Of a stretch of DNA of 64,000 nt, positions 1,993-14,791 are shown piece by piece. A model generated the notes under the pieces. It was not told where the DNA came from, searched no databases, and saw nothing but the letters and a program-made list of their open reading frames with translations. Source of the DNA: a virus; the IMG/VR virus record IMGVR_UViG_3300047312_000028, positions 112,326 to 176,325 of that record. The stretch is one strand, 5' to 3'. Position 1 is the stretch's first letter; each line of letters opens with the position of its first letter. The translations under genes and the position numbers were made by a program.

Positions 1993-2234
1993 TGTCCAAA
2001 GGTAAATTTCAACCGCAACCACAACGTTCTCAGATCGATCAACTCGAACAGAGAATGGAAAAGCTTGAGAAACGAATCGAAGCATTAGAACGACAGCAAC
2101 AAAGCGACCACGGCAGACTCGGTCCAGCAGTCATGGGATCGGGCAAAGATAGTCCGTTCTTGGAAATGCAAGACCGCATTAAAGAACTCGAAGATCAGAA
2201 TATCTTTGGTCTCAACCAACGAATAGGTTTTTAA
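1992..2234 (+). CDS. hypothetical coiled-coil protein
   Basis: ORF coupled by TAATG overlaps on both sides. Confidence 0.6.
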   Translation: MSKGKFQPQPQRSQIDQLEQRMEKLEKRIEALERQQQSDHGRLGPAVMGSGKDSPFLEMQDRIKELEDQNIFGLNQRIGF

Positions 2235-3316
2235 TGAAGCTGGCACTAATCAACGACACGCACGCCGGAGCGCGTAGTGATAACCCACAGGTGAATGAAT
2301 ATTTCTTTCGTTTCTGGAACGATATCTTCTTTCCTTCGCTCACCAAATATAATATCGACAAAATCATCCACTTGGGTGATGTAGTCGACCGTCGCAAGTT
2401 CATTAACTTCGCAATTTGGTATAAGTGGAAGAAGGATTTCTTTGATCGTATTCAGAACGAATTCAATCTTCCTATAGACATGCTCTGTGGTAACCACGAC
2501 GTATACTATAGAAATACCAATGATGTGAATGCGTTAGATGAATTGCTGGGTAACTATCCCAACATTCGTATCTTCAAAGAAGCGCAAGACATGCAATATG
2601 GTAGCTTGAACGTCGCCTTAATCCCGTGGATTAACTCAGGCAACCTTGAGCGCAGCATGACCTATATTAACGAGACCAAGGCGCCTGTGATCTTCGGTCA
2701 CTTAGAAATCTCAGGCTTTGAGATGGACAACGGCAACGTGTGCCTTACCGGTTTGACCAAAGATGTATTTGATCGATTCGACATGGTTCTGTCAGGTCAC
2801 TTTCATCACCGATCAAGCGACGGATCAATCTTCTATCTCGGTAACCAATATGAAATGACATGGGCCGACTACAAGGACCCGCGCGGCTTCCATATCTTCG
2901 ATACCGAAACAAGAGACTTGACTTATATCGAAAATCCATATAGACTGTTCCATAAGATTACTTACGATGATAGTCTCCAGAGCTTTGAATTCTGGAAGAA
3001 TCATGCGTTCAAAAAGTACACAAGTTCGTATGTGAAAGTCGTAGTCGTTCGCAAGCAGAATCCTTATCTATTCGACACGTTCATGGACATGCTGTACAAG
3101 GCATCCCCTCTCGACGTGACTACAGTAGAAGATTACACAGAGACCGCACTAGATGCCGCACAAGGTGTAGTCAATCAGGCAGAAGATACCGTGACCATCA
3201 TTCGCAAGTGCGTCGATGGCATGAAGATGCCTGGTGGTGTGGATCCAGAAAAGCTCAAAGGTATTCTGCAAGAGATTTATGTTGAAGCGGTAAATACGGA
3301 AACGGACGCGCAATAA
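2234..3316 (+). CDS. gp47: recombination endonuclease subunit gp47 (Mre11/SbcD-like)
   Basis: DTH, GDVVDRR, GNHD, GHLE, SGHFH metallophosphoesterase motifs. Confidence 0.96.
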   Translation: MKLALINDTHAGARSDNPQVNEYFFRFWNDIFFPSLTKYNIDKIIHLGDVVDRRKFINFAIWYKWKKDFFDRIQNEFNLPIDMLCGNHDVYYRNTNDVNALDELLGNYPNIRIFKEAQDMQYGSLNVALIPWINSGNLERSMTYINETKAPVIFGHLEISGFEMDNGNVCLTGLTKDVFDRFDMVLSGHFHHRSSDGSIFYLGNQYEMTWADYKDPRGFHIFDTETRDLTYIENPYRLFHKITYDDSLQSFEFWKNHAFKKYTSSYVKVVVVRKQNPYLFDTFMDMLYKASPLDVTTVEDYTETALDAAQGVVNQAEDTVTIIRKCVDGMKMPGGVDPEKLKGILQEIYVEAVNTETDAQ

Positions 3317-5025
3317 TGCTGCATTTCAAAAAGTTGAAGTGGAAGAACTTTCTTAGCACTGGGAACTACTGGTCAGAAATCGTATTCGACCGCAGCCAGA
3401 ACACACTGGTTGTAGGAGAGAACGGTTCTGGTAAGAGCACAATGCTGGATGCTCTCTGCTTTGCTCTCTATAATACACCGTTTCGTAACGTCAACAAGGG
3501 AACTCTAGTCAACTCTATCAACCAACGCGATTGTTCGGTTGAAGCTGAATTCACTACCGATAACCATGAGTATCGAGTCGTTCGTGGAATCAAGCCTGAT
3601 GTGTTTGAAATCTACAAGGACGGAGTCCTCGAGGACCAGACTCCTTCTGTGGACTATCAAGATCATCTAGAGAAGTTCATTCTTAAGCTGAACTATAAAA
3701 GCTTCACCCAGATCGTGATTCTTGGATCGGCTTCGTTCACTCCGTTCATGCAATTGAAAGCCAGTGATCGACGCGCCATCATTGAAGACTTGCTAGACAT
3801 ACAGATTTTCTCGTTGATGAACAAGATAGTCAAGACTAAGCTTTCAGAACTCTTGAACGGTAAGCTTTCAAATAAGCTCCTGATTGATGCCTGTGCAGAT
3901 AAGATTACCATACAAGAACGATATATTGCTGAAGCGCAGCAGGATGTCCAGGCACGTATCTCAGAGCACAATGAAGAGCTACGAAAGAACATTGAAGAGA
4001 TTACAAAACTCAATATGAATATCGCAGTCTCTAAACGTTCGCTCTCTGACATGAGCTCCAAGATTGCCGACAAAGCGAAAATTGAAGCGTCCTTAAGAAA
4101 AGTGACTCAATTGGAAGCTCAGATCGAAAACAACACAAGTAAACATAAAAAGAATATCAAGTTCTTTGAGACAGAAGATCAATGCCCAACCTGTACACAG
4201 GTGATCGATTCGACATTCAAGACAGCGCAAATCACAGGATTGACTGCTAAAGTATCTGAGTGTCAGACGGGTCTAACCCAACTTGAACAGAAAGCAATCA
4301 CCTATCAAAAGCAGTTGAGTGATATCGCCGTTATTGAACAGGAGATGAATCTACATGAAGTGGGTATCTCTGGCTATGAAAATTCGATTGCGCAGATCGA
4401 ACGATTCAACCAGGTCTTGACAAATAAACTGAACGAATTACAGAACAACCACCACTCGACAGTGCGTGAACAAGATCGACTCAAAGAACACCAAGACGAA
4501 CTCGCCAAGCTCATTGCTGAGAAACAGGTGCTGATTAGCACCGAAGCGTATTATGAAGCGTCTAGCACTCTTCTAAAGGACACCGGGATCAAGACAAAGA
4601 TCATTCGACAGTATTTGCCAATTATCAATACATTCTCGAATAAATACCTTGCCAGTATGGACTTCTTCGTGAACTTCAACCTGGACGAGACATTCAAGGA
4701 AACAATCAAGTCTCGATTCCGTGATGAATTCACATATCATTCGTTCTCAGAAGGACAGAAGCAACGCATTGACATGGCCCTGATGTTGACCTGGAGAGGA
4801 GTCGCTAAACTCAAGAACTCAGCAGACACCAATCTGTTAATCCTTGATGAAATATTCGATTCCAGTCTTGACAATGCGGGCGCCGAAGAACTGATGAAGA
4901 TTCTGTATTCCCTTGAAGGCACAAATGTCTTCGTCATTAGCCACAGAGGAGACATTTTACAAGACAAATTCAGAACCGTCATTAAGTTCGAGACTCACCA
5001 AAACTTTTCACGTATTGCATCATAA
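3316..5025 (+). CDS. gp46: recombination ATPase subunit gp46 (Rad50/SbcC-like)
   Basis: GENGSGKS Walker A, CPTC zinc hook, FSEGQ signature, LILDE. Confidence 0.97.
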   Translation: MLHFKKLKWKNFLSTGNYWSEIVFDRSQNTLVVGENGSGKSTMLDALCFALYNTPFRNVNKGTLVNSINQRDCSVEAEFTTDNHEYRVVRGIKPDVFEIYKDGVLEDQTPSVDYQDHLEKFILKLNYKSFTQIVILGSASFTPFMQLKASDRRAIIEDLLDIQIFSLMNKIVKTKLSELLNGKLSNKLLIDACADKITIQERYIAEAQQDVQARISEHNEELRKNIEEITKLNMNIAVSKRSLSDMSSKIADKAKIEASLRKVTQLEAQIENNTSKHKKNIKFFETEDQCPTCTQVIDSTFKTAQITGLTAKVSECQTGLTQLEQKAITYQKQLSDIAVIEQEMNLHEVGISGYENSIAQIERFNQVLTNKLNELQNNHHSTVREQDRLKEHQDELAKLIAEKQVLISTEAYYEASSTLLKDTGIKTKIIRQYLPIINTFSNKYLASMDFFVNFNLDETFKETIKSRFRDEFTYHSFSEGQKQRIDMALMLTWRGVAKLKNSADTNLLILDEIFDSSLDNAGAEELMKILYSLEGTNVFVISHRGDILQDKFRTVIKFETHQNFSRIAS

Positions 5026-5036
5026 AGGAGATTGCT

Positions 5037-5732
5037 ATGAATGATCTGACCGTCAATCAGCCAACCGCACCGAAGAGCTTTTCATATAATACAGAAGCCC
5101 CTCCTACGATTGCACCTAAGCAGCCACCTAAGTTGCTTCCGTTGTATAATGAAAATAATCCCATGTTGGCACTCAAGCAGCCAGAGTTTGATGTAAAGAA
5201 CCCACCAGTCAATATTATAGACTTTGCTAATCAGCTTCTCTACACCATGAGTCATTACGGTGGAGTAGGTCTTGCGGCACCACAATGCGGATTCCCTTTC
5301 CGTATGTTTGTCATGACGGGCGGGATCGTCTGTATCAACCCAGTGATCGTAGAACGATCAAAAGAAACAATATACACAAAGGAAGGGTGTCTCAGCTTCC
5401 CAGGTCTCTATTTGCCTGTGACCCGTCCCGAAACAGTCTTGATTCGCTACACCAACGAGTATGGAAAAGAAGTTGAAGTGCGATGGACAGGCGCCACGGC
5501 TCGATGTGCGCAACATGAGTACGATCATTTGGAAGGGAAAGTCTACACTTCACTAGTTGGTAACCTGACTCTTCAGATGGCGAAGAAGAAGCGACAGAAG
5601 CTTTTCAAGAAGATCCAACGCGCTGTAGAAATCAAGCAACGCAACCTTCGTATCGCTGGAAAAGATAAAGCATATGTCGCCAAGACAGTTGAAAATAGAC
5701 CGGTAGAGATTGAAACACATAGGCAGGGATAA
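5037..5732 (+). CDS. def: peptide deformylase
   Basis: GVGLAAPQ, EGCLS, HEYDH motifs. Confidence 0.93.
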   Translation: MNDLTVNQPTAPKSFSYNTEAPPTIAPKQPPKLLPLYNENNPMLALKQPEFDVKNPPVNIIDFANQLLYTMSHYGGVGLAAPQCGFPFRMFVMTGGIVCINPVIVERSKETIYTKEGCLSFPGLYLPVTRPETVLIRYTNEYGKEVEVRWTGATARCAQHEYDHLEGKVYTSLVGNLTLQMAKKKRQKLFKKIQRAVEIKQRNLRIAGKDKAYVAKTVENRPVEIETHRQG

Positions 5733-6871
5733 TGAAAGACTGGCAACACGGTATTGAAATCGACTATCTCAAGGCGCAAGAACGATTCTATGAACCGTTC
5801 AACAAACATGCTTTGTCGGTCTTTGGTAAGTTCAAGAAAAACGACATTGCTGCCAAATTGTATGCTGGTGTGTGGAAGAGAATGCGCGACTGTGCTTATG
5901 TCGTAGAAGAAGCGAAGGTAGCTACCAAGATCAGTATGCACGGCAGCACGATCATCGGTCAGAAAGAAAAAGGAGATTTGACATTTTCTAAGCTTGTAGG
6001 TGATCTGATAGAGTTGACTTTTGCATTTCACGCATTACACTATAAAGAACGAAACTGTTTCATCGTCGCGTATGCTGGTCAAGAAGATATCTGTGCATTT
6101 GCCGAATACCAGGGATTCAGAAAGCTTGGTTATAAAGTTACTTCGTTTGCAGAGATTCTAGCAGTCTACTATCGTGATTCAGATTTAAGTCTCGCTCCAC
6201 GCGATCATCCTAGAGCGTCTACTGCCGATCTTGTCGGCATGGCACAAGTCGGAATAGCGAATCATAAACTCCTATTAGCCATTCTAGGAAAACTTCAATC
6301 ACTTGACCCTAAGTTCACGAACCACTATAGCAACTACAATGCGAAGAATGCGTGGTCCGCTCTTTCACTTCGTGGCTACTCAGCAGATCCGGGCTTCATT
6401 ATCAAGCCCGCTGAGATGAATGATAAGTGGTTAGCTGAACACAAAACTGAGAACTACTTTCTACAAGATACACCTTTATATACCCAATTCCCCGAGGTCC
6501 GACAATTATTGTCGTTCTTAGATGGGGAAGTGCACCGGGTACGATTTATGCAATTAGCTCCTGGCGGGGGAGAGTTACAAAGACATACAGACCAGGTCGA
6601 TCCTGATGCTGGCAACTCGTTAGGCGCCGTGGCTCGCTTGCACTTCCCTTTAGTCACAAATGAACGAGTGATCTTCAGTACATGGAATGAGTTTGACAAA
6701 GAAGAAAACTATCATTATGGATTCGGTGAAGTGTGGGTGATCGATACACGCAAACCACACAAAGCAGTCAACGGTGGCAAAGACAATCGTATACATCTTG
6801 TGGTTGATGTAGTTGTCACACCTAAGATTGAAAGGATAATTTGTGAAGGTACCTCAAGACGTATTGAATAA
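5732..6871 (+). CDS. fusion: N-terminal GNAT-like domain + C-terminal Asp/Asn beta-hydroxylase-type 2OG-Fe(II) dioxygenase
   Basis: C-term RVRFMQLAPGG..HTD...RLHFPL...H.AVN...RIHLVVD; N-term ends in GF.KLG.K, a GNAT-like motif (weaker). Confidence 0.7.
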   Translation: MKDWQHGIEIDYLKAQERFYEPFNKHALSVFGKFKKNDIAAKLYAGVWKRMRDCAYVVEEAKVATKISMHGSTIIGQKEKGDLTFSKLVGDLIELTFAFHALHYKERNCFIVAYAGQEDICAFAEYQGFRKLGYKVTSFAEILAVYYRDSDLSLAPRDHPRASTADLVGMAQVGIANHKLLLAILGKLQSLDPKFTNHYSNYNAKNAWSALSLRGYSADPGFIIKPAEMNDKWLAEHKTENYFLQDTPLYTQFPEVRQLLSFLDGEVHRVRFMQLAPGGGELQRHTDQVDPDAGNSLGAVARLHFPLVTNERVIFSTWNEFDKEENYHYGFGEVWVIDTRKPHKAVNGGKDNRIHLVVDVVVTPKIERIICEGTSRRIE

Positions 6872-7286
6872 GATGTTTGAGACGGCAGACCTCTCAAAGG
6901 ATGAACTCTATGATGCTTTGAGAAAGATGGGTGCCAAAGCGATCAAGCCCAAGTTCCGATTTGGTTGGTCTGAAGAAGTGCCTACGTGGTGCACTTGCTA
7001 CTTTGTCTCTGAGTTTGCCTACTTCTATCTTGCACCGAAGGGAACGAAACCCTATTCAGTAAAAGTGCCTGGTGATCCTGGGACGCATAGATTCTTGATG
7101 TGGCCAGATTCCATCATTGTTGATTTAACAGCAGAACAATTCCCAGATTATGGACTGGTGAGAACAGCCTACTCAAAAGCTAGAGTTACAATGTTCATGC
7201 AAACAGGATGTGTCGGTCCATCACAGAGAGCGAAGGAGCTAGCCGGGATCCTTGGCTTTAATGAATCAGCCTGGTCAAAACCTTAA
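6843..7286 (+). CDS. hypothetical protein (Cys...His...Asp, possible papain/transglutaminase-like triad)
   Basis: CYFVSE...THRFL...VDLTAEQF pattern. Confidence 0.45.
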   Translation: MKVPQDVLNKMFETADLSKDELYDALRKMGAKAIKPKFRFGWSEEVPTWCTCYFVSEFAYFYLAPKGTKPYSVKVPGDPGTHRFLMWPDSIIVDLTAEQFPDYGLVRTAYSKARVTMFMQTGCVGPSQRAKELAGILGFNESAWSKP

Positions 7287-7296
7287 AGGAGAAGCT

Positions 7297-7914
7297 ATGA
7301 AGCAGAATTACACACATATGATTTTGGTGCTCGACGAATCAGGTTCCATGGCATACACCGCGGCCGCGACACGAGAAGGCGTCAATGGATTGCTCGATAC
7401 GCAGCAAGCGGTGCCTGGCGATCTCACGACAGCGTTGTATAAGTTCTCAAACTCAGTATCGGAAGTAGCGACCCTCTTGGCGCTCACGACAGACAACTAT
7501 CGTCCAAGTGGTGGTACAGCATTGAATGATGCCGTATGCCAAGCGATTGACAAAGAAGGTGCGCGCCTTTCTGCATTGCCAGAAGAACAACGACCGGATA
7601 AGGTTGTGGTAGCGATTGTGACTGACGGATTTGAAAATGCGTCAATCAAATTCAAGAAAGCAGATGTGAAGGATCGTATCACCCGCCAAGAAGCACAGTA
7701 CCAGTGGCAATTTGTATTCTTGGGTGCCAACATGGATGCGTTCGCTGAAGCAGAATCCTACGGCATCTTGAAAACGTCAGGTTATGCGTTCAATATGACA
7801 GCAGACAGCATTAAGACCTCTTATGATGTTACCTCGAAAGCGTTTGCTGATTACAGAGTGGGAACGAAAAAGACAGTCAACATGGCAGACGCCGCAAAGG
7901 ACCTGGGTAAATAA
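7297..7914 (+). CDS. vWA domain protein
   Basis: MIDAS DESGS, GGTALNDA, IVTDG.EN, FLGAN. Confidence 0.9.
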   Translation: MKQNYTHMILVLDESGSMAYTAAATREGVNGLLDTQQAVPGDLTTALYKFSNSVSEVATLLALTTDNYRPSGGTALNDAVCQAIDKEGARLSALPEEQRPDKVVVAIVTDGFENASIKFKKADVKDRITRQEAQYQWQFVFLGANMDAFAEAESYGILKTSGYAFNMTADSIKTSYDVTSKAFADYRVGTKKTVNMADAAKDLGK

Positions 7915-7915
7915 T

Positions 7916-8743
7916 ATGTTTTACAAACCCCTCTCAGTTATGCCTGGTATGTTTGATTTTCTGCATGAATCGATTGCAGAGATAGAACATTCTGGATGGC
8001 AAGACCCAAACCCACCAATTCAAGTCATGGATCATGAGGGCTTCCTCGTGGTCCGTGATGACCTCCTCGGATACGGATCGAAAGCTCGATTCATCGATTA
8101 TATGATTAAGACAGCACCACAACAGCAATTCGTATTCGGTGCCTGTCCTGCGACTGGTTACGCACAGATCAGTTTACCCGCCGTCGCTACTCGGTATAAT
8201 AAGCAGGTGCATTTGTTCATGGCACAACGAAACATGAACAAACTTCACGACTATCAGAAGCTAGGAGCGGACTTAGGATCGATCTATCACTGGGTGCCTT
8301 CTGGTATGCTGAACGTAACCAAAGCCAGAGCAATGGAGTATGCCGCAGAAGATCCAATCAATCGCGTCTTATTACCTATCGGTCTTGAGAATCCCACAGT
8401 CATTGCCAGCATCGTCAAAGTGGCAAGAGACCAAATAGGATTCACACCAGATCATGTATGGACGGTTGGTTCTAGCGGTACGCTGAACAGAGGTCTGCAA
8501 CTTGCCTGGCCGACTGCCGAAGTACATGTAGTCTCTGTGGGTCATAAAATGAGTGAACGAGAAATAGGCAGAGCAATCATACATACCGTTCCGTATAAGT
8601 TCGACAAGAAGCTGAAGCCAATCGATGCACCACCGTTCCCAAGTGCGCCGACATACGATGCAAAGGGATGGCGTCCGATGGTTGATTGGTATAAGACACA
8701 TGAACGACCTGAGAAGGTTCTCTTCTGGAACGTCGCCGCATAA
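7916..8743 (+). CDS. PLP-dependent enzyme, fold type II (ACC deaminase/D-Cys desulfhydrase-like)
   Basis: VVRDDLL..GSKAR (Schiff-base Lys), VGSSGT phosphate loop, YDAK. Confidence 0.8.
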   Translation: MFYKPLSVMPGMFDFLHESIAEIEHSGWQDPNPPIQVMDHEGFLVVRDDLLGYGSKARFIDYMIKTAPQQQFVFGACPATGYAQISLPAVATRYNKQVHLFMAQRNMNKLHDYQKLGADLGSIYHWVPSGMLNVTKARAMEYAAEDPINRVLLPIGLENPTVIASIVKVARDQIGFTPDHVWTVGSSGTLNRGLQLAWPTAEVHVVSVGHKMSEREIGRAIIHTVPYKFDKKLKPIDAPPFPSAPTYDAKGWRPMVDWYKTHERPEKVLFWNVAA

Positions 8744-8747
8744 TTCC

Positions 8748-8776
8748 TTGACATTTCAATTCACTTGTGGTATAAT
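8748..8776 (+). promoter_or_regulatory. consensus sigma70 promoter
   Basis: TTGACA-N17-TATAAT. Confidence 0.85.
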
Positions 8777-8784
8777 TCTCACTT

Positions 8785-9174
8785 ATGCGTCTACTTGTCT
8801 GCGGCGACCGTGAATGGTCAGACTACATTATGATCGAACGTGAAATCAAAAATCTCAAGCCCGCCATCGTGATTGAAGGTGAAGCTAGAGGCGCAGACAG
8901 TCTTGCCCGCAAAGCTGCCGAAACTCTCGGCATTCCAGTTCTCCCCTTCCCCGCTGATTGGGACCAGTATGGTCGATCAGCGGGGCCCATTCGCAATCGC
9001 TTGATGTTAAGTAAAGGTATGCCTACACTTGTACTTGCGTTCCATGATAATCTAGCGAAGTCAAAAGGCACTCTTGATATGGTGAATGCTGCACGAAAGT
9101 ACGGCGTAGAAGTGAGAGTGATTGGACATGGCTCAACCGTAACCTACCCCGCAACAGGAAGACTTGATCTATGA
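8785..9174 (+). CDS. SLOG-superfamily YspA-like (DUF2493) protein
   Basis: VCGDR, IEGEARGAD, ADW..YGRSAGPIRN..M, SKGT.DM. Confidence 0.85.
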   Translation: MRLLVCGDREWSDYIMIEREIKNLKPAIVIEGEARGADSLARKAAETLGIPVLPFPADWDQYGRSAGPIRNRLMLSKGMPTLVLAFHDNLAKSKGTLDMVNAARKYGVEVRVIGHGSTVTYPATGRLDL

Positions 9175-10847
9175 ATTGGTTTTATGAAAAGAACAACGAA
9201 CTCTTAGAGTCACCCGTCAACAAGACGTTTGAAGAACTCTTGTGGATGACGAAAGATGAATTCAGACAATGGGTGATTGATCTCCGCAAGACGGTGGTAT
9301 ACCTATGGGATGAGAAAGGCCAGCCACCTCGTGTTGGATATAACGAGAATGAAATTATCGAACAGTTCAACGATCTTGAGCCATTCATGGTCGATAGCTT
9401 CTTGAAACTTGATGAATACACAGGCGACAAGAATATCATTCGCAACACATCCAATCTTGGTAACGCGGTCAATCAGTTCTTCCCTACTATGATGAAGACT
9501 CGTATCAACTACACAAAAGACCCAAGTGCAGGTAAGTCCATCTATGACTTCTTCGCAAAGCCAGAGCTACTTGATACATTCATCACGTATGCTTCGCGGC
9601 ACTTTAAGCGCGACAGCTTCTATCATTACTCTGTACCAATCAAGACGTTTGATCGAACGCGCATGGGATTGCTGCCAGTGACACAGACTGGTATTGAGTG
9701 GATCAAAGAGTTTGAAGCTGGTGTATTCAGAAAGAAGAACTGGGACTACTGGCTGGCGCCACGAGAAATTGAATCAGAATACACAGGTTACAACGAAGAC
9801 CTGAAAGGCCAGTCCTACCTTCGTGTAACCAAACAAGAACTCGACACACTCACTGTACCCGACAAATGCAAGACTAATGTTCGAGAACTCAAAGACAATG
9901 AATCATTCTTGATCCGTGTGTTTGAGAAGGGACAGAAAGTATTCCCTATCGGTCTCAAAGCGTTTCGTGTCTCGTTCTGTCAATACGCTGTGAACTTCCC
10001 ACCGTTGACTGCAAAGTTCATTTATGAGAAGTATACCCAAGAGTGGAAAGATGAATCGATGATCTATGTCTGGGACCCATCGTCTGGTTGGGGTGGTCGT
10101 TTGCTCGGTGCATTGTCTGTTGCCGATACTTTGCGACTCACCTACCTAGGCAACGATCCTAATACCGATCATAACATCGGTCACGGGAAGACGAAGTATC
10201 ACGCTATTGCCGACTTCTATCATGAACATGTGCAGAAGGGCGGCGGGACCATGATGAAGTATGCAGAAAGTCCACGACCGCATAACAAGTTCGTCTTCTG
10301 GCAGAAGGGTTCTGAGGAGATGCAGTATGAACTTGAGTTTCTGAAGTATAAAGGAAAGTTGAGTCTGGTATTCACAAGTCCTCCGTACTTTGCCAAAGAA
10401 GCGTATTCAGAAGACAAAGAGCAATCTTATAAGAAGTTTTCACAGTATGATCTGTGGCGCGATGGTTTTTTACAAGAAACACTCAAGACCGCAGTTGAAT
10501 GGTTGCGCCCAGGCGGATATCTCGCGTGGAACATTGCCGATGCAGACTTTGGTGGGCAGACACTTCCACTAGAAGGAGATTCGCGTAAGTTCCTTGAAGA
10601 TGCCGGTATGATCTACGTTGAGACTATGAAAATGTCACTCGCACAGATGCCTGGCGGTAATCGACTTGACACTGTTACCGGTTTGCCGAAAGCTAAGAAC
10701 TTCTGCAAAGTCGATGGATTGTGGCTGAAGTACGAACCCATCTTTATCTATCGCAAACCCGGCACATCCGGCGCACAACGGCGCAAAGAGACAACACCCG
10801 ACAGACAGATCATAGTCAGACCTCCGGCAGGGAAGCTAGACTTTTGA
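9171..10847 (+). CDS. SAM-dependent DNA amino-methyltransferase-like protein
   Basis: motif I WDPSSGWGGRL, motif IV FTSPPYF, LRPGG, YEPIFI. Confidence 0.8.
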   Translation: MNWFYEKNNELLESPVNKTFEELLWMTKDEFRQWVIDLRKTVVYLWDEKGQPPRVGYNENEIIEQFNDLEPFMVDSFLKLDEYTGDKNIIRNTSNLGNAVNQFFPTMMKTRINYTKDPSAGKSIYDFFAKPELLDTFITYASRHFKRDSFYHYSVPIKTFDRTRMGLLPVTQTGIEWIKEFEAGVFRKKNWDYWLAPREIESEYTGYNEDLKGQSYLRVTKQELDTLTVPDKCKTNVRELKDNESFLIRVFEKGQKVFPIGLKAFRVSFCQYAVNFPPLTAKFIYEKYTQEWKDESMIYVWDPSSGWGGRLLGALSVADTLRLTYLGNDPNTDHNIGHGKTKYHAIADFYHEHVQKGGGTMMKYAESPRPHNKFVFWQKGSEEMQYELEFLKYKGKLSLVFTSPPYFAKEAYSEDKEQSYKKFSQYDLWRDGFLQETLKTAVEWLRPGGYLAWNIADADFGGQTLPLEGDSRKFLEDAGMIYVETMKMSLAQMPGGNRLDTVTGLPKAKNFCKVDGLWLKYEPIFIYRKPGTSGAQRRKETTPDRQIIVRPPAGKLDF

Positions 10848-10932: not shown

Positions 10933-10971
10933 CTAACCATAATGAGCAACAAAATAGGGGAGACAAAAAGC

Positions 10972-13449
10972 ATGTTCACAGTCGAAACAAAAAGCATGTT
11001 GGCAAAGTTGATGGCGACTGAGAATATCAAGGTCGAACATCGAAACTGCAAGACAGCGGGATTCAATCTGAAGACCCGCACCTTGATTTGCCCAATCTGG
11101 AAAGACATGTCAGGTGATCTGTATGACATGTTGATGGGTCATGAAATCTCACATGCTCTTCGTACCCCTGTTGATGGTTGGCACGATTCAGTTGTCTACG
11201 CTGGCGGCGACAAGAAAGCGAGCCCGGAAGCTCAACGCGCATTCAAGCATTTCCTGAACGTTGCTGAAGATGCACGAATTGAAAAGCTTGTGAAGCGCCA
11301 GTATCCCGGCATTCGTCGACCCATGGTCAATGCGTACAAAGAACTGCTAGCAAAAGACTTCTTCGGTCTTTCTGCCATCACAAATTTCAATGAACTCTAT
11401 TTGATCGATAAGCTGAATCTTGCCGCGAAGTGTGGAACTCTTGTAAACATTCGCTTCTACGGCAAAGAAAAAGCACTCTATGATGAAATGATGGGCACAG
11501 AGACATGGGATGAAGTGGTCGCGTTCACGCGCAAAGTGTACGAATATAGCAAAGAAGAACAGCAACAAGGCGAACAGAAGCGCAAAGAGCTTGCCGATCA
11601 TTTGAAAGAAATGTATGAGCAGGAGCAAGCTGAAGAGGACGAACAATGCGACGATGACGAAGATTCTTATTCTTTTGAGGGTGAAGGCGACGATGAAGAC
11701 GGCGAAGAAGGTGAGGATGGCGACAGCGACGGAGAGAGTGATGAAGATGAAGACGGCGAAGATGGCGACGGAAAAGGTGAAGATGGGGAAGACGGAGAAG
11801 AAGGCGATGGTAAGAAAAGTAAGTCAAAGGGTGAAAATGCCAAAGATGACAAAGAAAAGAAAGCTGATGACAAAGCAGTAGACAAAAAGAAAGATGACGG
11901 CAAGGGAAATCGAAGCAAGAAGTCTGATTCGACAAAACCGGCTCAGGTTGGCGAAGATAAGGGTCAAGAGAACTCGAACGAGAAAGGCGACTTTGTTCCT
12001 AAAGCAAAGACAGATGAAGCGTTCCGTGCTCGTGAGGAACGATTGATCGAAAAGACCAAGACTGAATCATATTATGTAAATATTCCTCTAGTCACGTTGA
12101 AGGATGTTGTAGCTCCTGCGGAGATCGTGAATCGTGGGCTCACGTACTACTACGCGGCGCGAAAAGAAGAAGGATACAAGCTCTTCAACGAATTCAAGAA
12201 GAAGAATGAGGACTATATCTCATTGCTGGCAAAAGAATTTGAAATGAAGAAAGCTGCACGATCATATGCGAAAGCGAAGATTTCAGATTCGGGCGATATC
12301 AATATCAACAAGCTGGCAAACTATCGCATGGAAGATAACATCTTCAAGAAGATGATTCAGGTTCATAAAGGTAAGTCTCACGGTCTAGTCTTGATTCTCG
12401 ACAAATCTGGTTCGATGCACCAGCACATTGAAGGGGCAATGGAACAGATTCTTGTCATGGCGCTCTTCTGTCGTAAGGTCAATATCCCGTTCGTTGCGTA
12501 TAGCTTCACAAGCAGTGGGTGTGGTTCGATGGAACATGACTTTCCAGGACGTGGACATGGATCAAAGAATCCTTTAAGACCATTCAGCAAGCGCCCCCTC
12601 GACATGATAATGGGCAATCTTGAACTTCGTGAAATGTTCAACTCAAAGATGCCCGCTAGCGAGTTTACACAATCAATTATGAACCACTTGATGGTAGCGA
12701 AAGCGTTATCAAGTCGCCAAGGGTATTCAGCACCCAATCATGAACGCATGGGCGGCACCCCGCTGAACGAAGCGTTGGTAGCCTTGCGTGATCTGATTCG
12801 CCAGTTCAAAGGTCAACATCGATTAGATATCGTGAATGCTGTAGTCGTGCATGACGGCGATTCTGATGGTAACAGCAGAGCCTTTGCTGAGAATAGCAAT
12901 ACCAAGGGCAACGAGGGCGACCATTCGTATTCATACAACACAATCCATTTTCATCCAGAAATCAATCGTCTGACTCTTGTGGACACGAAAGAGAAGATCC
13001 AGATTGATGTGCCGAAAGAAAGCCGGGGCCTCACGATTGCATTGATGAAGTGGATTCAGATGACCGCCGATTGTGGAGTCTTCGGATTCTACATCACAGG
13101 CGCTACAGCATCGACGGCACGTGGTGGGATCATGAATCTCTTTCAGAATGAGCAGGGAATTAAATTAGAGCATGTGCGCAAGCATAATACAAATGAAGCG
13201 GGGATGTTGATTGACAAGCTCTGCCGCGAAGTGATCGAAAAGAAGTTCCTTGAATCATGGACTTCAGGCTACACGCGGTTCTATTTCATTCCCGGTTCAG
13301 TTGAGTTGAAGACCGAGAATCTTCAGATGGTTGAGAACGGCAAGGGTTGGACCCCTTCGCGTCTTCTGACGGCGTTTAAGCGGGTCAATCGACGTAAACA
13401 AGTGTCTCGCGTTCTCGTGAACAAGTTTATTGAGCTAATCGCCGTCTAA
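10972..13449 (+). CDS. CobT-like protein: N-terminal HExxH domain, acidic linker, C-terminal vWA
   Basis: GHEISHAL, NVAEDARIE, D/E/G-rich linker, LDKSGSM MIDAS, GGTPLNE; GGGGAG SD before ATG 10972. Confidence 0.85.
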   Translation: MFTVETKSMLAKLMATENIKVEHRNCKTAGFNLKTRTLICPIWKDMSGDLYDMLMGHEISHALRTPVDGWHDSVVYAGGDKKASPEAQRAFKHFLNVAEDARIEKLVKRQYPGIRRPMVNAYKELLAKDFFGLSAITNFNELYLIDKLNLAAKCGTLVNIRFYGKEKALYDEMMGTETWDEVVAFTRKVYEYSKEEQQQGEQKRKELADHLKEMYEQEQAEEDEQCDDDEDSYSFEGEGDDEDGEEGEDGDSDGESDEDEDGEDGDGKGEDGEDGEEGDGKKSKSKGENAKDDKEKKADDKAVDKKKDDGKGNRSKKSDSTKPAQVGEDKGQENSNEKGDFVPKAKTDEAFRAREERLIEKTKTESYYVNIPLVTLKDVVAPAEIVNRGLTYYYAARKEEGYKLFNEFKKKNEDYISLLAKEFEMKKAARSYAKAKISDSGDININKLANYRMEDNIFKKMIQVHKGKSHGLVLILDKSGSMHQHIEGAMEQILVMALFCRKVNIPFVAYSFTSSGCGSMEHDFPGRGHGSKNPLRPFSKRPLDMIMGNLELREMFNSKMPASEFTQSIMNHLMVAKALSSRQGYSAPNHERMGGTPLNEALVALRDLIRQFKGQHRLDIVNAVVVHDGDSDGNSRAFAENSNTKGNEGDHSYSYNTIHFHPEINRLTLVDTKEKIQIDVPKESRGLTIALMKWIQMTADCGVFGFYITGATASTARGGIMNLFQNEQGIKLEHVRKHNTNEAGMLIDKLCREVIEKKFLESWTSGYTRFYFIPGSVELKTENLQMVENGKGWTPSRLLTAFKRVNRRKQVSRVLVNKFIELIAV
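11620..11900 (+). repeat. low-complexity acidic (D/E/G) then Lys/Asp-rich coding tract
   Basis: repeated GAAGA(C/T)GGCGA units encoding EDGE/DGD. Confidence 0.7.
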
Positions 13450-13487
13450 GTGTACAAAAATGTACAGAAAATACGTGGTATTTGAGC

Positions 13488-13516
13488 TTGACTTTGTGGT
13501 GTGTCTTTGTTAGACT
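13488..13516 (+). promoter_or_regulatory. sigma70-type promoter
   Basis: TTGACT-N17-TAGACT. Confidence 0.65.
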
Positions 13517-13555
13517 TCTACCAGATTGACACACATATCAACAAAAGGAGCGAAT

Positions 13556-14791
13556 ATGACAGAGCGAATTGAATCCCGTGACAAGTTTCTGGCTCTCTTA
13601 GTCTCGACTGGCAAGAGTGTCATTACGAAACAAGAGATACGGGACTTGTGTGAAGCGAATGATATGAAGGTCCCTCAGTGGTTCACGAAAGACGATGTGA
13701 ACCGCGCGGGTCGCGGGATGTTCAGAGTGCCAGGTGTCCCAGTGTCAATCACAGCAGATAATCACGTATCAACTCAAGAAGAGAAAGAGGAGGAGATTGT
13801 GGAACAAGTTGCTATGCAGCCGTTGGCATTGGCGCCTGTGACAAAGAAACTCAAGATTGCGACGATTGCAACCGATCTTGAAGAGCAGGGGATTATCCCG
13901 CTCAAGTATAAGAACTATGTTCCCTTCGGCAACTTTGATGATCTGAAGGCGATCATTCTTTCTCGACAGTTCTACCCCGTGTTCATCACAGGCCCGTCTG
14001 GTAACGGCAAGAGCTTGTCAGTTGAGCAGGTCTGTGCAATGCTCGGGCGTGAATATGTGTGTGTTAGTATGACGCCTGAGACTGATGAAGGTGACTTGCT
14101 CGGCAACTACATCTTGCTTGACAATCAGATGATTTGGCGAGACGGTGCAGTGACTACAGCGGCTCGACGTGGCGCGGTTCTTTGTATCGATGAAATTGAC
14201 TACGGCGCACAGAATCTTTCGTGTCTGCAACGAGTGCTTGAAGGAAAGCCGTTCTTGCTTAAGAAGAAAGGCGAACTTGTGACCCCGGCTCCTGGGTTCC
14301 AGATCATTGCGACTGCGAACACAAAGGGGAAGGGATCTGAAGACGGACGCTACATGTTCACGAACGTCTTGAATGAATCGTTCCTTGAGCGATTCCCTAT
14401 CACGTTCGAGCAAGAATGGGCGCCGAACAATGTTGAGCGACGTATTATCAAGAAAGAACTCGAAACGTCTGGTCGTGAGGATGATGACTTTGCGATGAAC
14501 TTGGTCACCTGGGCTAGCACGATTCGCAAGGCCTACGAAGAAGAAGGTGCTTCAAGTGAAGTAGTCTCGACTCGTAGACTGGTGCACATTGCCCGTGCGT
14601 ATCCGATATTCAACGGAGATCGTATCAAGGCCATCACGTATTGTTTGAACCGATTCGATGAAGAAACCAAGAAGTCATTCATCGATTTGTACACGAAGGT
14701 GGATGCCAGCGTGACTGTGAACAATACAGTGAACTCTACCGATCCGAGTGCGATACCAGACCCTGATGCGGCGACTATAGTGGTAACATAA
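13556..14791 (+). CDS. cobS: CobS/MoxR-like AAA+ ATPase
   Basis: GPSGNGKS, LCIDEID, ATANTKGKG..DGRY, FLERF, STRRLVHI. Confidence 0.9.
   Translation: MTERIESRDKFLALLVSTGKSVITKQEIRDLCEANDMKVPQWFTKDDVNRAGRGMFRVPGVPVSITADNHVSTQEEKEEEIVEQVAMQPLALAPVTKKLKIATIATDLEEQGIIPLKYKNYVPFGNFDDLKAIILSRQFYPVFITGPSGNGKSLSVEQVCAMLGREYVCVSMTPETDEGDLLGNYILLDNQMIWRDGAVTTAARRGAVLCIDEIDYGAQNLSCLQRVLEGKPFLLKKKGELVTPAPGFQIIATANTKGKGSEDGRYMFTNVLNESFLERFPITFEQEWAPNNVERRIIKKELETSGREDDDFAMNLVTWASTIRKAYEEEGASSEVVSTRRLVHIARAYPIFNGDRIKAITYCLNRFDEETKKSFIDLYTKVDASVTVNNTVNSTDPSAIPDPDAATIVVT

Follow-up and report, generated by a model that had tools for sequence, protein, structure and literature searches.

On the evidence of sequence, four proteins of an uncultured T4-like phage, the methyltransferase-fold protein MT558, the hydroxylase fusion HYD379, the small protein o147 and the fold-type-II PLP enzyme PALP, are functionally coupled and form one unit. 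We propose that the four genes constitute a hypermodification module, in which MT558 would transfer a 3-amino-3-carboxypropyl (acp) group to a base amine and HYD379 and PALP would tailor it, a reading to which we give an even chance of being correct. The product is probably a DNA base with a hitherto undescribed side chain of amino-acid origin, made without the known thymidine machinery. A literature search found no paper describing the MT558-HYD379-PALP module.

HYD379, PALP and MT558 are all encoded on the plus strand between positions 5732 and 10847 of the window, the 64,000-nucleotide stretch of DNA analysed here.

5037-5732: peptide deformylase (PDF), between gp46 and HYD379
5732..6871, plus strand: HYD379, N-terminal GNAT-fold domain and PF05118-type Fe(II)/2OG hydroxylase
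6843..7286, plus strand: o147, small YunG-like protein, alternative start ATG 6873
7916..8743, plus strand: PALP, fold-type-II PLP enzyme of the M6 gp52 / phrog_7093 family, 275 aa
8748..8776, plus strand: sigma-70-type promoter match (TTGACA, 17 nt with TG, TATAAT), perfect, as a consensus match only
8785..9174, plus strand: SLOG129, YAcAr/SLOG-family protein, translationally coupled (ATGA) to MT558
9171..10847, plus strand: MT558, 558 aa, N-terminal ~290 aa followed by a class I SAM-methyltransferase fold

The HYD379 start overlaps the PDF stop (TAATG); o147, a small VWA protein and the SLOG/YAcAr protein are three extra genes interspersed among HYD379, PALP and MT558, and the predicted promoter lies upstream of SLOG129 and MT558. 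The sequence-only reading had left these three extra genes unlisted and had placed the set next to gp46. The region is correct, but the module gene nearest to gp46 is the HYD379 fusion and not the methyltransferase, and PDF intervenes.

The same reading had supposed that three of these genes work together, and their natural triple and double fusions, along with their joint occurrence outside T4-like synteny, bear this out about as firmly as sequence can. Elsewhere among viruses, and in a few bacteria, MT, HYD and PALP form one polypeptide of ~1050-1190 aa (P0001-P0013, P0023); one NR entry among these fusions, of 1148 aa, bears the name of Nitrosomonas nitrosa. Further natural fusions are MT+PALP, HYD+PALP, HYD+o147+PALP and o147+PALP, with o147 joined to PALP or HYD+PALP in P0022, P0024, P0170 and P0235. 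The module genes are also adjacent in contexts that lack gp46/47 (L050-L055, L066-L075). Co-occurrence in other genomes had been set beforehand as a test of the idea, and the genes both co-occur and fuse. Among complete relatives, two carry MT only (G001, G002), two carry MT and HYD without PALP (G003, G004) and others hold all module parts, which is the pattern expected for optional tailoring. DNA as the target is favoured by further fusions of PALP-family proteins, to N6_N4/Eco57I methylases and to ParB_N, and by the surroundings of the bacterial copies, which include an integrase or resolvase as well as restriction systems of type I or type ISP.

The open reading frame listed for PALP spans 7823-8743, and homologues of the protein begin near residue 59, making ATG 7916 the likely start. 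PALP itself has no Pfam match; PF00291 is matched by 16 of its 42 close homologues (best E 6e-11), and the GSKxR lysine and SSG loop are invariant across the homologues, confirming the fold-type-II PLP enzyme recognised from the sequence. Its motifs comprise Lys56 in GSKAR, the phosphate loop GSSGT and the C-terminal PFPSAPTYDAKGW and FWNVA. Comparison with Pseudomonas phage M6 gp52 by hhalign gives 98% probability (E 1.8e-13, 220 columns), with Lys56 aligned to Lys36 of gp52, and phrog_7093 is matched by both gp52 (2e-159) and PALP (2.9e-35). Against nine E. coli PALP enzymes, the hhalign probability never exceeds 13%. By these comparisons, the specific kinship of PALP is with DNA-adduct decarboxylases and not with metabolic lyases. 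M6 gp52 and ViI gp226 are proven decarboxylases of amino-acid:nucleobase conjugates in DNA (PMC8989533). Their substrates are C5-linked thymidine adducts and not N-linked ones, and the only characterised members of the PALP family act on DNA. PALP is predicted to decarboxylate a base-linked alpha-amino acid.

The predicted GNAT/beta-hydroxylase fusion also held up. HYD379 residues 191-361 match PF05118 Asp_Arg_Hydrox (E 3.4e-12), and its AF2 model (pLDDT 94.4) contains both folds. The GNAT fold covers residues 8-153 (Z 12.0, 139 residues aligned to 2pc1), is akin to N-terminal acetyltransferases among many others, and lacks the Q/RxxGxG/A acetyl-CoA loop. The 2OG-oxygenase fold (residues 163-365) is nearest to L-proline cis-4-hydroxylase (Z 15.8) and AspH (Z 15.1), and is thus closer to amino-acid hydroxylases (Z 15-16) than to AlkB or TET enzymes (Z 10-11); H285, D287, H343 and R353 are invariant. 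A homologue, gp4 of mycobacteriophage LilMcDreamy, adjoins a PF18724 amino-acid:DNA transferase. HYD379 is predicted to hydroxylate the amino-acid side chain of the base adduct, and together the two enzymes strongly suggest that they act on an alpha-amino acid attached to a base in DNA, supporting the amino-acid-like group on DNA envisaged earlier. The o147 protein, whose homologues match PF24585 YunG and share an invariant Cys52, His82 and Asp94, belongs to the module as an accessory and is possibly a thiol acyl-transferase or hydrolase. The membership of SLOG129 is uncertain, and only a minority of relatives have it.

MT558 is indeed the SPPY-type methyltransferase-like protein described previously. 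PF01555 N6_N4_Mtase is matched by residues 398-533, the only such match in the genome (rated 100% complete); motif I, DPSSGWGGR, occupies aa 302-310 (nt 10074-10100), motif IV, FTSPPYF, aa 401-407 (nt 10371-10391), and D329 ends strand 2. The C-terminal half adopts a class I methyltransferase fold (AF2 pLDDT 87), while the conserved N-terminal ~290 aa have no recognised fold. All PALP-fused MT domains of the MT558 class share D-x-x-x-G-(W/F)-G-(G/D)-R and TSPPY, and a second, distinct MT class with a (S/T/A)CPPY motif is also fused to PALP. MT558 is predicted to install a group on an exocyclic base amine. The genome contains no thymidylate-synthase-like, Tet_JBP, ADDT, M6 gp51-like or M6 gp54-like genes, and no hmU/hmC source (dUMP/dCMP hydroxymethylase), 5-hmdU DNA kinase or amino-acid:DNA transferase (aGPT-Pplase/AADT); therefore, the MT-fold enzyme is the sole candidate installer.

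We infer that the group moved by this enzyme is aminocarboxypropyl and not methyl, and that it is placed on DNA and not on RNA. The module would work on phage DNA after replication. MT558 would flip a base out and move the acp group of SAM to the exocyclic amine, instead of or besides methyl, releasing methylthioadenosine (MTA); cytosine N4 would be the most likely target because of the TSPPY motif. The 2OG domain of HYD379 would then hydroxylate the side chain and PALP would strip its carboxylate, leaving a positively charged N-(3-aminopropyl) or hydroxy-aminopropyl base. In an alternative order, PALP would make decarboxylated SAM and MT558 would transfer aminopropyl, giving the same product. 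Phages with MT alone would stop at acp, and those with MT and HYD at hydroxy-acp. Several findings count against this model. The SAM-binding and TSPPY motifs of MT558 are typical of ordinary amino-methyltransferases, its best viral structural matches carry plain m4C methylase annotations, the M6 gp52 and ViI gp226 adducts are C5-linked, and the GNAT domain, with its missing acetyl-CoA loop, is given no part in the scheme. Since PALP is fused to two MT classes, acp transfer would need to have arisen in, or be common to, two MT lineages.

The proposed logic has precedents. In wybutosine synthesis, TYW2 is an acp transferase using SAM and TYW5 is a 2OG hydroxylase of the side chain; nocardicin NAT and the enzymes of tRNA acp3U are other SAM-acp transferases. 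The likeness, MT-fold acp transfer followed by 2OG hydroxylation, is an analogy of logic only, as TYW2, TYW5 and NAT show no specific sequence relationship to the module proteins and the nocardicin acp transferase 8zhv is one among many generic fold matches of MT558. Furthermore, TYW5 is a JmjC enzyme whereas HYD379 belongs to PF05118, and the SAM-acp systems target tRNA or small molecules and have no decarboxylation step. Phage Mu Mom, a GNAT-fold enzyme making N6-carbamoylmethyl-adenine, is a case of non-methyl modification of an exocyclic base amine. It is likened here by fold and function and not by homology, and the GNAT fold of HYD379 is instead an N-terminal hydroxylase appendage. In thymidine hypermodification (M6, ViI, PaMx11; Lee et al., NAR 2021, PMC8989533), a PLP enzyme of the same family tailors a base-attached amino acid in polymeric DNA, and tailoring genes likewise occur in combinatorial sets and as fusions in metagenomes; the LilMcDreamy cluster is of this kind. 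However, the constant partner here is an amino-methyltransferase-fold enzyme, the group is predicted to sit on an exocyclic nitrogen (probably that of cytosine) and not on the C5-methyl of thymine, and the PF05118 hydroxylase is a new tailoring class relative to those pathways. With N4-cytosine/N6-adenine DNA methyltransferases (PF01555, Eco57I-like), MT558 shares the class I fold, the G-x-G of motif I, the acidic residue after strand 2 and TSPPY(F), but all of its clade have the G(W/F)G(G/D)R form of motif I, and MT558 carries the conserved 290-aa N-terminal domain.

A plain methyl mark fails to explain the habitual fusion or adjacency of the MT to a PLP enzyme of decarboxylase type and a hydroxylase of amino-acid type. 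MT558 might nevertheless be an ordinary N4-cytosine/N6-adenine DNA methyltransferase, with the hydroxylase turning N-methyl into a hydroxymethyl handle, an amino acid being joined to it, with the GNAT-like domain or o147 as a possible catalyst, and PALP decarboxylating that amino acid, in parallel to the 5-hmdU route. The canonical motifs of MT558, its best viral structural matches (named cytosine-N4 DNA methyltransferases), the logic shared with the proven thymidine pathway and the GNAT and thiol-protein domains at hand as possible transferases favour this route. We nonetheless consider it unlikely, as many MT+PALP fusions and loci are devoid of any hydroxylase, HYD379 is nearer to amino-acid hydroxylases than to AlkB/TET, and unstable N-hydroxymethyl hemiaminals suit the complete genomes with only MT and HYD poorly. 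Somewhat more doubtful is a module acting on RNA (tRNA/rRNA) or a translation-apparatus protein, for instance making a base like wybutosine or acp3U, or modifying a protein N terminus or a glutamine. An RNA target is conceivable because the top PDB matches of the MT558 fold are the tRNA m2G methyltransferases Trm11, TrmN and Trm14 (Z 15-16), with PrmC also among them; the JGI name TrmN6 of some fusions, the upstream PDF and the resemblance of the GNAT fold to N-terminal acetyltransferases point the same way. Against it stand the DNA-acting members of the PALP family, the ParB_N and DNA-methylase fusion partners, the restriction islands housing bacterial copies, and the PADLOC matches, to mad2 (one bacterial MT domain) and to Type II methyltransferases. 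In non-T4 contexts PDF is missing, and several T4-like loci retain the module without it; no RNA-binding domain, THUMP included, was detected.

It is very improbable that no polymer is marked and that the MT-fold protein cleaves SAM, with the PLP enzyme and hydroxylase degrading the amino-acid product or S-adenosylhomocysteine, so that SAM depletion or relief of product inhibition counters restriction or serves metabolism. There are SAM lyases with a class I methyltransferase fold (azetidine-2-carboxylate synthases), and fold-type-II PLP enzymes include gamma-eliminating/deaminating lyases; NCBIfam matches to threonine dehydratases are present but weak. However, TSPPY is invariant and serves to bind a planar target amine, the kin of PALP are DNA-adduct decarboxylases, and constitutive SAM destruction would be costly for bacterial genomes with the fusion. 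Hardly credible is the view that these are unrelated auxiliary genes, together only through the gp47-gp46-PDF...CobT syntenic block of the phage lineage. Most trio loci do keep the T4-like order and VWA and SLOG genes are interspersed, but the genes are adjacent on contigs without gp46/47, and their fusion in many independent single polypeptides contradicts it.

If the acp-based hypermodification that we propose is true, its likely purpose is the shielding of phage DNA from restriction, and the few bacterial copies may serve self-marking inside defence islands.

The window covers the final 64 kb of a virus record of 176,325 bp that is rated 100% complete. The source is an uncultured T4-like phage, whose gp46 shares 47% identity with its counterpart in Methylophilales phage Melnitz and 46% with those of cyanomyoviruses; a megablast search with the region found nothing among 50,697 phage records. 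The genes around the putative modification module are arranged as follows.

Genes of the module region (window positions, strand, product)
2234-3316, + strand: gp47
3316-5025, + strand: gp46
5037-5732, + strand: peptide deformylase (PDF)
5732-6871, + strand: HYD379, a fusion of a GNAT fold and a PF05118 2OG-hydroxylase
6843-7286, + strand: o147, a small YunG-like protein
7297-7914, + strand: small VWA protein (phrog_7371), found within the module in a minority of T4-like relatives
7916-8743, + strand: PALP, a fold-type-II PLP enzyme
8785-9174, + strand: SLOG129, a SLOG/YAcAr protein
9171-10847, + strand: MT558, a 558-residue amino-methyltransferase-like protein
10942-13449, + strand: CobT-like VWA/peptidase protein (phrog_459) that has a long acidic stretch of low complexity
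13526-14791, + strand: MoxR/CbbQ-type AAA_5 ATPase

The genes are tightly packed and in places overlap, with TAATG at the junction of PDF and HYD379 and ATGA at that of SLOG129 and MT558; homologues place the start of PALP at 7916 and not at 7823. The 41-nt gap 5' of SLOG129 holds a perfect extended sigma-70-type promoter match (8748-8776; TTGACA, 17 nt with TG, TATAAT), and SLOG129 and MT558 may therefore be transcribed early and separately from the upstream genes HYD379 to PALP. The CobT-like protein and the MoxR/CbbQ-type ATPase (10942-14791) come after MT558 in nearly all T4-like relatives.

Conservation of the gene neighbourhood, which the sequence-only reading had offered as a check on its proposal of a DNA base-hypermodification set, was borne out: the module genes (MT558, HYD379, o147 and PALP) recur across 157 related viral loci, most of which keep the T4-like order, and also as fusions. 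Recurrence in this order alone could be synteny. The module nevertheless extends beyond mere synteny, because contigs that lack gp46/47 also carry its genes together, with PALP directly after the methyltransferase (MT) gene in one group (L050-L055) and the order MT, HYD379-type hydroxylase (HYD), o147, PALP in another (L066-L075), and because they are fused to each other. A search for longer PALP relatives yielded 47 fusion proteins, about 15 of which join MT558-type, HYD379-type and PALP domains in a single chain of 994-1191 residues, one of which is in NR under the name of Nitrosomonas nitrosa; two fusions contain MT558 in full, N-terminal domain included. Further fusions comprise MT+PALP, HYD+PALP, HYD+o147+PALP and o147+PALP; the metagenomic proteins P0022, P0024, P0170 and P0235 are among those that join o147 to PALP-family domains, with or without HYD. 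This is Rosetta-stone evidence, at the level of sequence, for a common process in which the four proteins act. Among complete relatives, whole-genome searches found two genomes with MT only and two with MT and HYD without PALP; such gene content shows the parts to be optional around a constant MT.

A second class of MT, with an (S/T/A)CPPY motif, is also fused to PALP, for example in Erythrobacter phage R6L gp1 (L002), Microcystis phage Mae-JY30 (L001) and P0027-P0040; GenBank annotates proteins of this class simply as DNA modification methylases, and where the two are fused, the PLP domain seems to form an insertion that separates motif I from motif IV. As judged from these fusions, the MT-PALP partnership is older and broader than MT558. 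In Mae-JY30, a homologue of the SLOG/YAcAr protein of the window (L001 1353-1769; 37% identity) lies about 4 kb upstream of the MT and PALP genes and may be a further accessory link.

The three proteins from which the earlier proposal had been built are all real. The methyltransferase-like protein with the atypical motif I DPSSGWGGR has a class I fold, and its DPSSGWGGR-type and FTSPPYF motifs are invariant; the fold-type-II PLP enzyme has invariant PLP motifs and belongs to a family in which PF00291 is found in 16 of the 42 homologues, PALP itself giving no Pfam match; and the GNAT-like domain fused to a beta-hydroxylase-type dioxygenase is seen both in a PF05118 hit (E 3.4e-12) and in the GNAT and 2OG-oxygenase folds of the structure model.

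The C-terminal half of MT558 forms a Rossmann-like class I methyltransferase fold (AF2, pLDDT 87), which Foldseek matches to many SAM methyltransferases with E of about 1e-6. No variation is seen across 41 sequences at residues D302, S304, G306, W307, G309, R310 and D329, which cover the motif I glycine loop and the acidic residue that follows strand 2; the loop carries W and R, and the variant G(W/F)G(G/D)R is common to all PALP-fused MT domains of the same class. Motif IV, F401-T-S-P-P-Y-F407, at which the Pfam match begins, is likewise invariant among the homologues. Motif IV follows the pattern (S/D/N)PP(Y/F), within which T-S-P-P-Y/F marks the N4-cytosine type (PROSITE signature). In BFVD, the viral structures that match MT558 best are annotated as cytosine-N4 methyltransferases; these matches and motif IV make cytosine N4 our best guess for the putative target atom. 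The N-terminal domain of 290 residues is strongly conserved and found no fold match in whole-model searches, which the methyltransferase domain dominates.

PALP is related to M6 gp52. The phrog_7093 profile matches PALP with E 2.9e-35 over positions 14-278 of 279 (M6 gp52 itself, 2e-159), and in hhalign the profile of PALP homologues and gp52 align over 220 columns (98% probability, E 1.8e-13). PALP homologues vary neither in the lysine of GSKxR nor in the SSG loop; this lysine, K56, pairs with the Schiff-base lysine K36 of gp52, which PMC8989533 names, the invariant SSG(T) loop lines up as well, and a distinctive C-terminal region, PFP..P.YD.K.W ... FWN(V/I)G, matches between the two. Since hhalign gives the PALP profile a probability of at most 13% against nine E. 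coli fold-II PALP enzymes, the relationship to gp52 is, on profile comparison, specific. Working with purified proteins, Lee et al. demonstrated that thymine-attached amino acids in polymeric DNA are decarboxylated by M6 gp52 and ViI gp226 (PMC8989533), and from family membership we infer that PALP would decarboxylate an amino-acid:nucleobase conjugate in DNA. Within fold II, hmmsearch and hhalign against these nine enzymes gave no subfamily placement, and NCBIfam gave only weak threonine-dehydratase and CuyA matches; that RDDL...GSKxR resembles the motif of ACC deaminase and D-Cys desulfhydrase is hence no more than a lead. Searches of PDB sequences with PALP, its profile and the MT558 profile gave nothing meaningful, and the ESM Atlas returned only unnamed viral clusters. 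The gp52-type PLP family has 1148 representatives at E ≤ 1e-10, and it is repeatedly fused to amino-methyltransferases, YunG-like domains, ParB_N and DUF3102.

HYD379 was modelled confidently (pLDDT 94). H285, D287, H343 and R353, forming the HxD...H iron triad and the 2OG-binding arginine, are invariant in 40 homologues, and the hydroxylase domain is a double-stranded beta-helix (Z 15.8 to 4p7x, 15.1 to AspH) whose nearest folds (Z 15-16) are L-proline cis-4-hydroxylase, a nucleoside-antibiotic hydroxylase, AspH and proline 3-hydroxylase. Residues 8-153 adopt a GNAT fold (Z 12.0 to 2pc1, 139 residues aligned, rmsd 3.3; several other GNATs at Z 10-11). The Q/R-x-x-G-x-G/A loop that binds the acetyl-CoA pyrophosphate was sought after strand 4 of this part and no such motif is conserved, the loop reading AGQED in HYD379 and WAED in the homologue consensus; the domain is therefore not classed as an active acetyltransferase. 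In o147, the invariant residues Cys52, His82 and Asp94 suggest a thiol enzyme.

The sole HYD379 homologue among cultured phages is gp4 of mycobacteriophage LilMcDreamy, which directly follows a PF18724 amino-acid:DNA transferase and a weak Tet_JBP match. The LilMcDreamy gp3 protein is an ADDT/aGPT-Pplase-type transferase (L003, gp1-gp4), and gp1-gp4 has the look of an uncharacterised hypermodification cluster of thymidine type that includes a hydroxylase. The annotation of LilMcDreamy gp2 as 'queuine tRNA-ribosyltransferase' raised a 7-deazaguanine lead, which was dropped: Pfam finds no TGT there, only the weak Tet_JBP match, and the phage studied here has no TGT in its own genome. With the gp52 kinship of PALP and the gp4 context of HYD379, the two tailoring enzymes of the module are thus, by homology, kin to enzymes of bona fide or predicted DNA amino-acid hypermodification clusters.

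The known route of this kind, thymidine hypermodification through 5-hmdU, differs from the present case in its machinery, as its hydroxymethyl source, its 5-hmdU DNA kinase and its aGPT-Pplase/ADDT were not found in this genome. Neither PF00303 (thymidylate-synthase-like hydroxymethylase) nor PF12851 (TET/JBP), sources of 5-hmdU or 5-hmdC, has a match in the phage's own genome, rated 100% complete, and M6 gp54 (kinase), M6 gp51 (transferase) and PF18724 (ADDT) have none at E ≤ 0.1 in single-sequence searches, which distant forms could escape. A TGT and a Dam are absent from the genome as well. The smallest fused systems consist of an MT domain and PALP alone. A PLP decarboxylase requires a free alpha-amino acid, and a SAM-binding methyltransferase fold has just one to offer, the 3-amino-3-carboxypropyl (acp) group of SAM itself, which TYW2, the nocardicin transferase and other enzymes transfer. 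The absent machinery, the minimal fusions and the need for a free alpha-amino acid together lead us to a model of acp transfer. MT558 would place acp on an exocyclic base amine, HYD379 would hydroxylate the acp side chain and PALP would decarboxylate it to a (hydroxy)aminopropyl group. In an alternative order, PALP would first decarboxylate SAM and MT558 would then transfer aminopropyl, as spermidine synthase does, to give the same product. The acp model accounts for every occupancy pattern (MT; MT+HYD; MT+PALP; all), each with a stable product. The likeness found between MT558 and the acp transferases TYW2 and NAT is a generic class I fold similarity only, the nocardicin transferase 8zhv standing 15th in Foldseek and not above ordinary methyltransferases, and with the second, (S/T/A)CPPY class of MT also joined to PALP, acp transfer would have to apply to both MT lineages.

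DNA is the rather probable target of the module, because the proven substrates of the PALP family, the ParB_N and DNA-methylase partners, the PADLOC matches (mad2 and Type II methylases for a fused MT domain) and the restriction-system neighbours all favour it; bacterial copies adjoin an integrase or resolvase and type I or type ISP restriction systems. An RNA target, which we consider the less probable, would agree with the top PDB fold matches of MT558, which are tRNA m2G methyltransferases (aTrm11 5e72: Z 16.2, 179 residues aligned, rmsd 2.9), but these matches may merely reflect the unpermuted motif order. The scan of species-representative genomes found only six loci, mostly on short MAG contigs and phage-derived in appearance. 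A conserved nuclease partner was sought beside the bacterial fusions: PADLOC gave no match, and the neighbours of two loci have no mutual similarity. The upstream neighbours of two unrelated bacterial MT-PALP fusions (L158 9340-10029, L161 4658-5635) are helical, basic proteins with a common NLPP(Y/S)..LY.L motif and no BLAST-level similarity, and P0238, a PALP-DUF3102 fusion, hints at a partner related to them.

We therefore put forward, as a tentative proposal to which we give somewhat less than even credence, that in widespread aquatic T4-like phages and a few bacteria an enzyme with a DNA-methyltransferase fold moves acp onto an exocyclic DNA base amine, probably cytosine N4, and that hydroxylation and decarboxylation then yield a cationic (hydroxy)aminopropyl base. 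Literature searches for DNA hypermodification by a PLP enzyme and a methyltransferase (with or without a hydroxylase), for acp-DNA and for aminopropyl-DNA found no description, including in the thymidine-pathway paper PMC8989533. We class the module as phage DNA hypermodification through tailoring of an appended amino acid, that is, a known kind in a different form; that it represents a new chemical class of DNA modification is possible, though we would lean slightly against it. To our knowledge, all known amino-acid-derived DNA hypermodifications begin from 5-hydroxymethyl pyrimidines. If the acp proposal is true, the module would be a second, hmU-independent route to amino-acid-derived hypermodified DNA, and its methyltransferase-fold start would add a new way to write complex groups on DNA. 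Such a route would lead one to expect new bases with resistance to restriction enzymes and possibly to CRISPR nucleases, and its two or three enzymes would make a compact kit with which to tag DNA site-specifically with a primary amine. At E ≤ 1e-10, MT558-type proteins fall into at least 2221 clusters, all of them unnamed in the databases searched; given the size of this family and its lack of names, many abundant environmental phages may bear DNA chemistry that sequencing pipelines do not expect.
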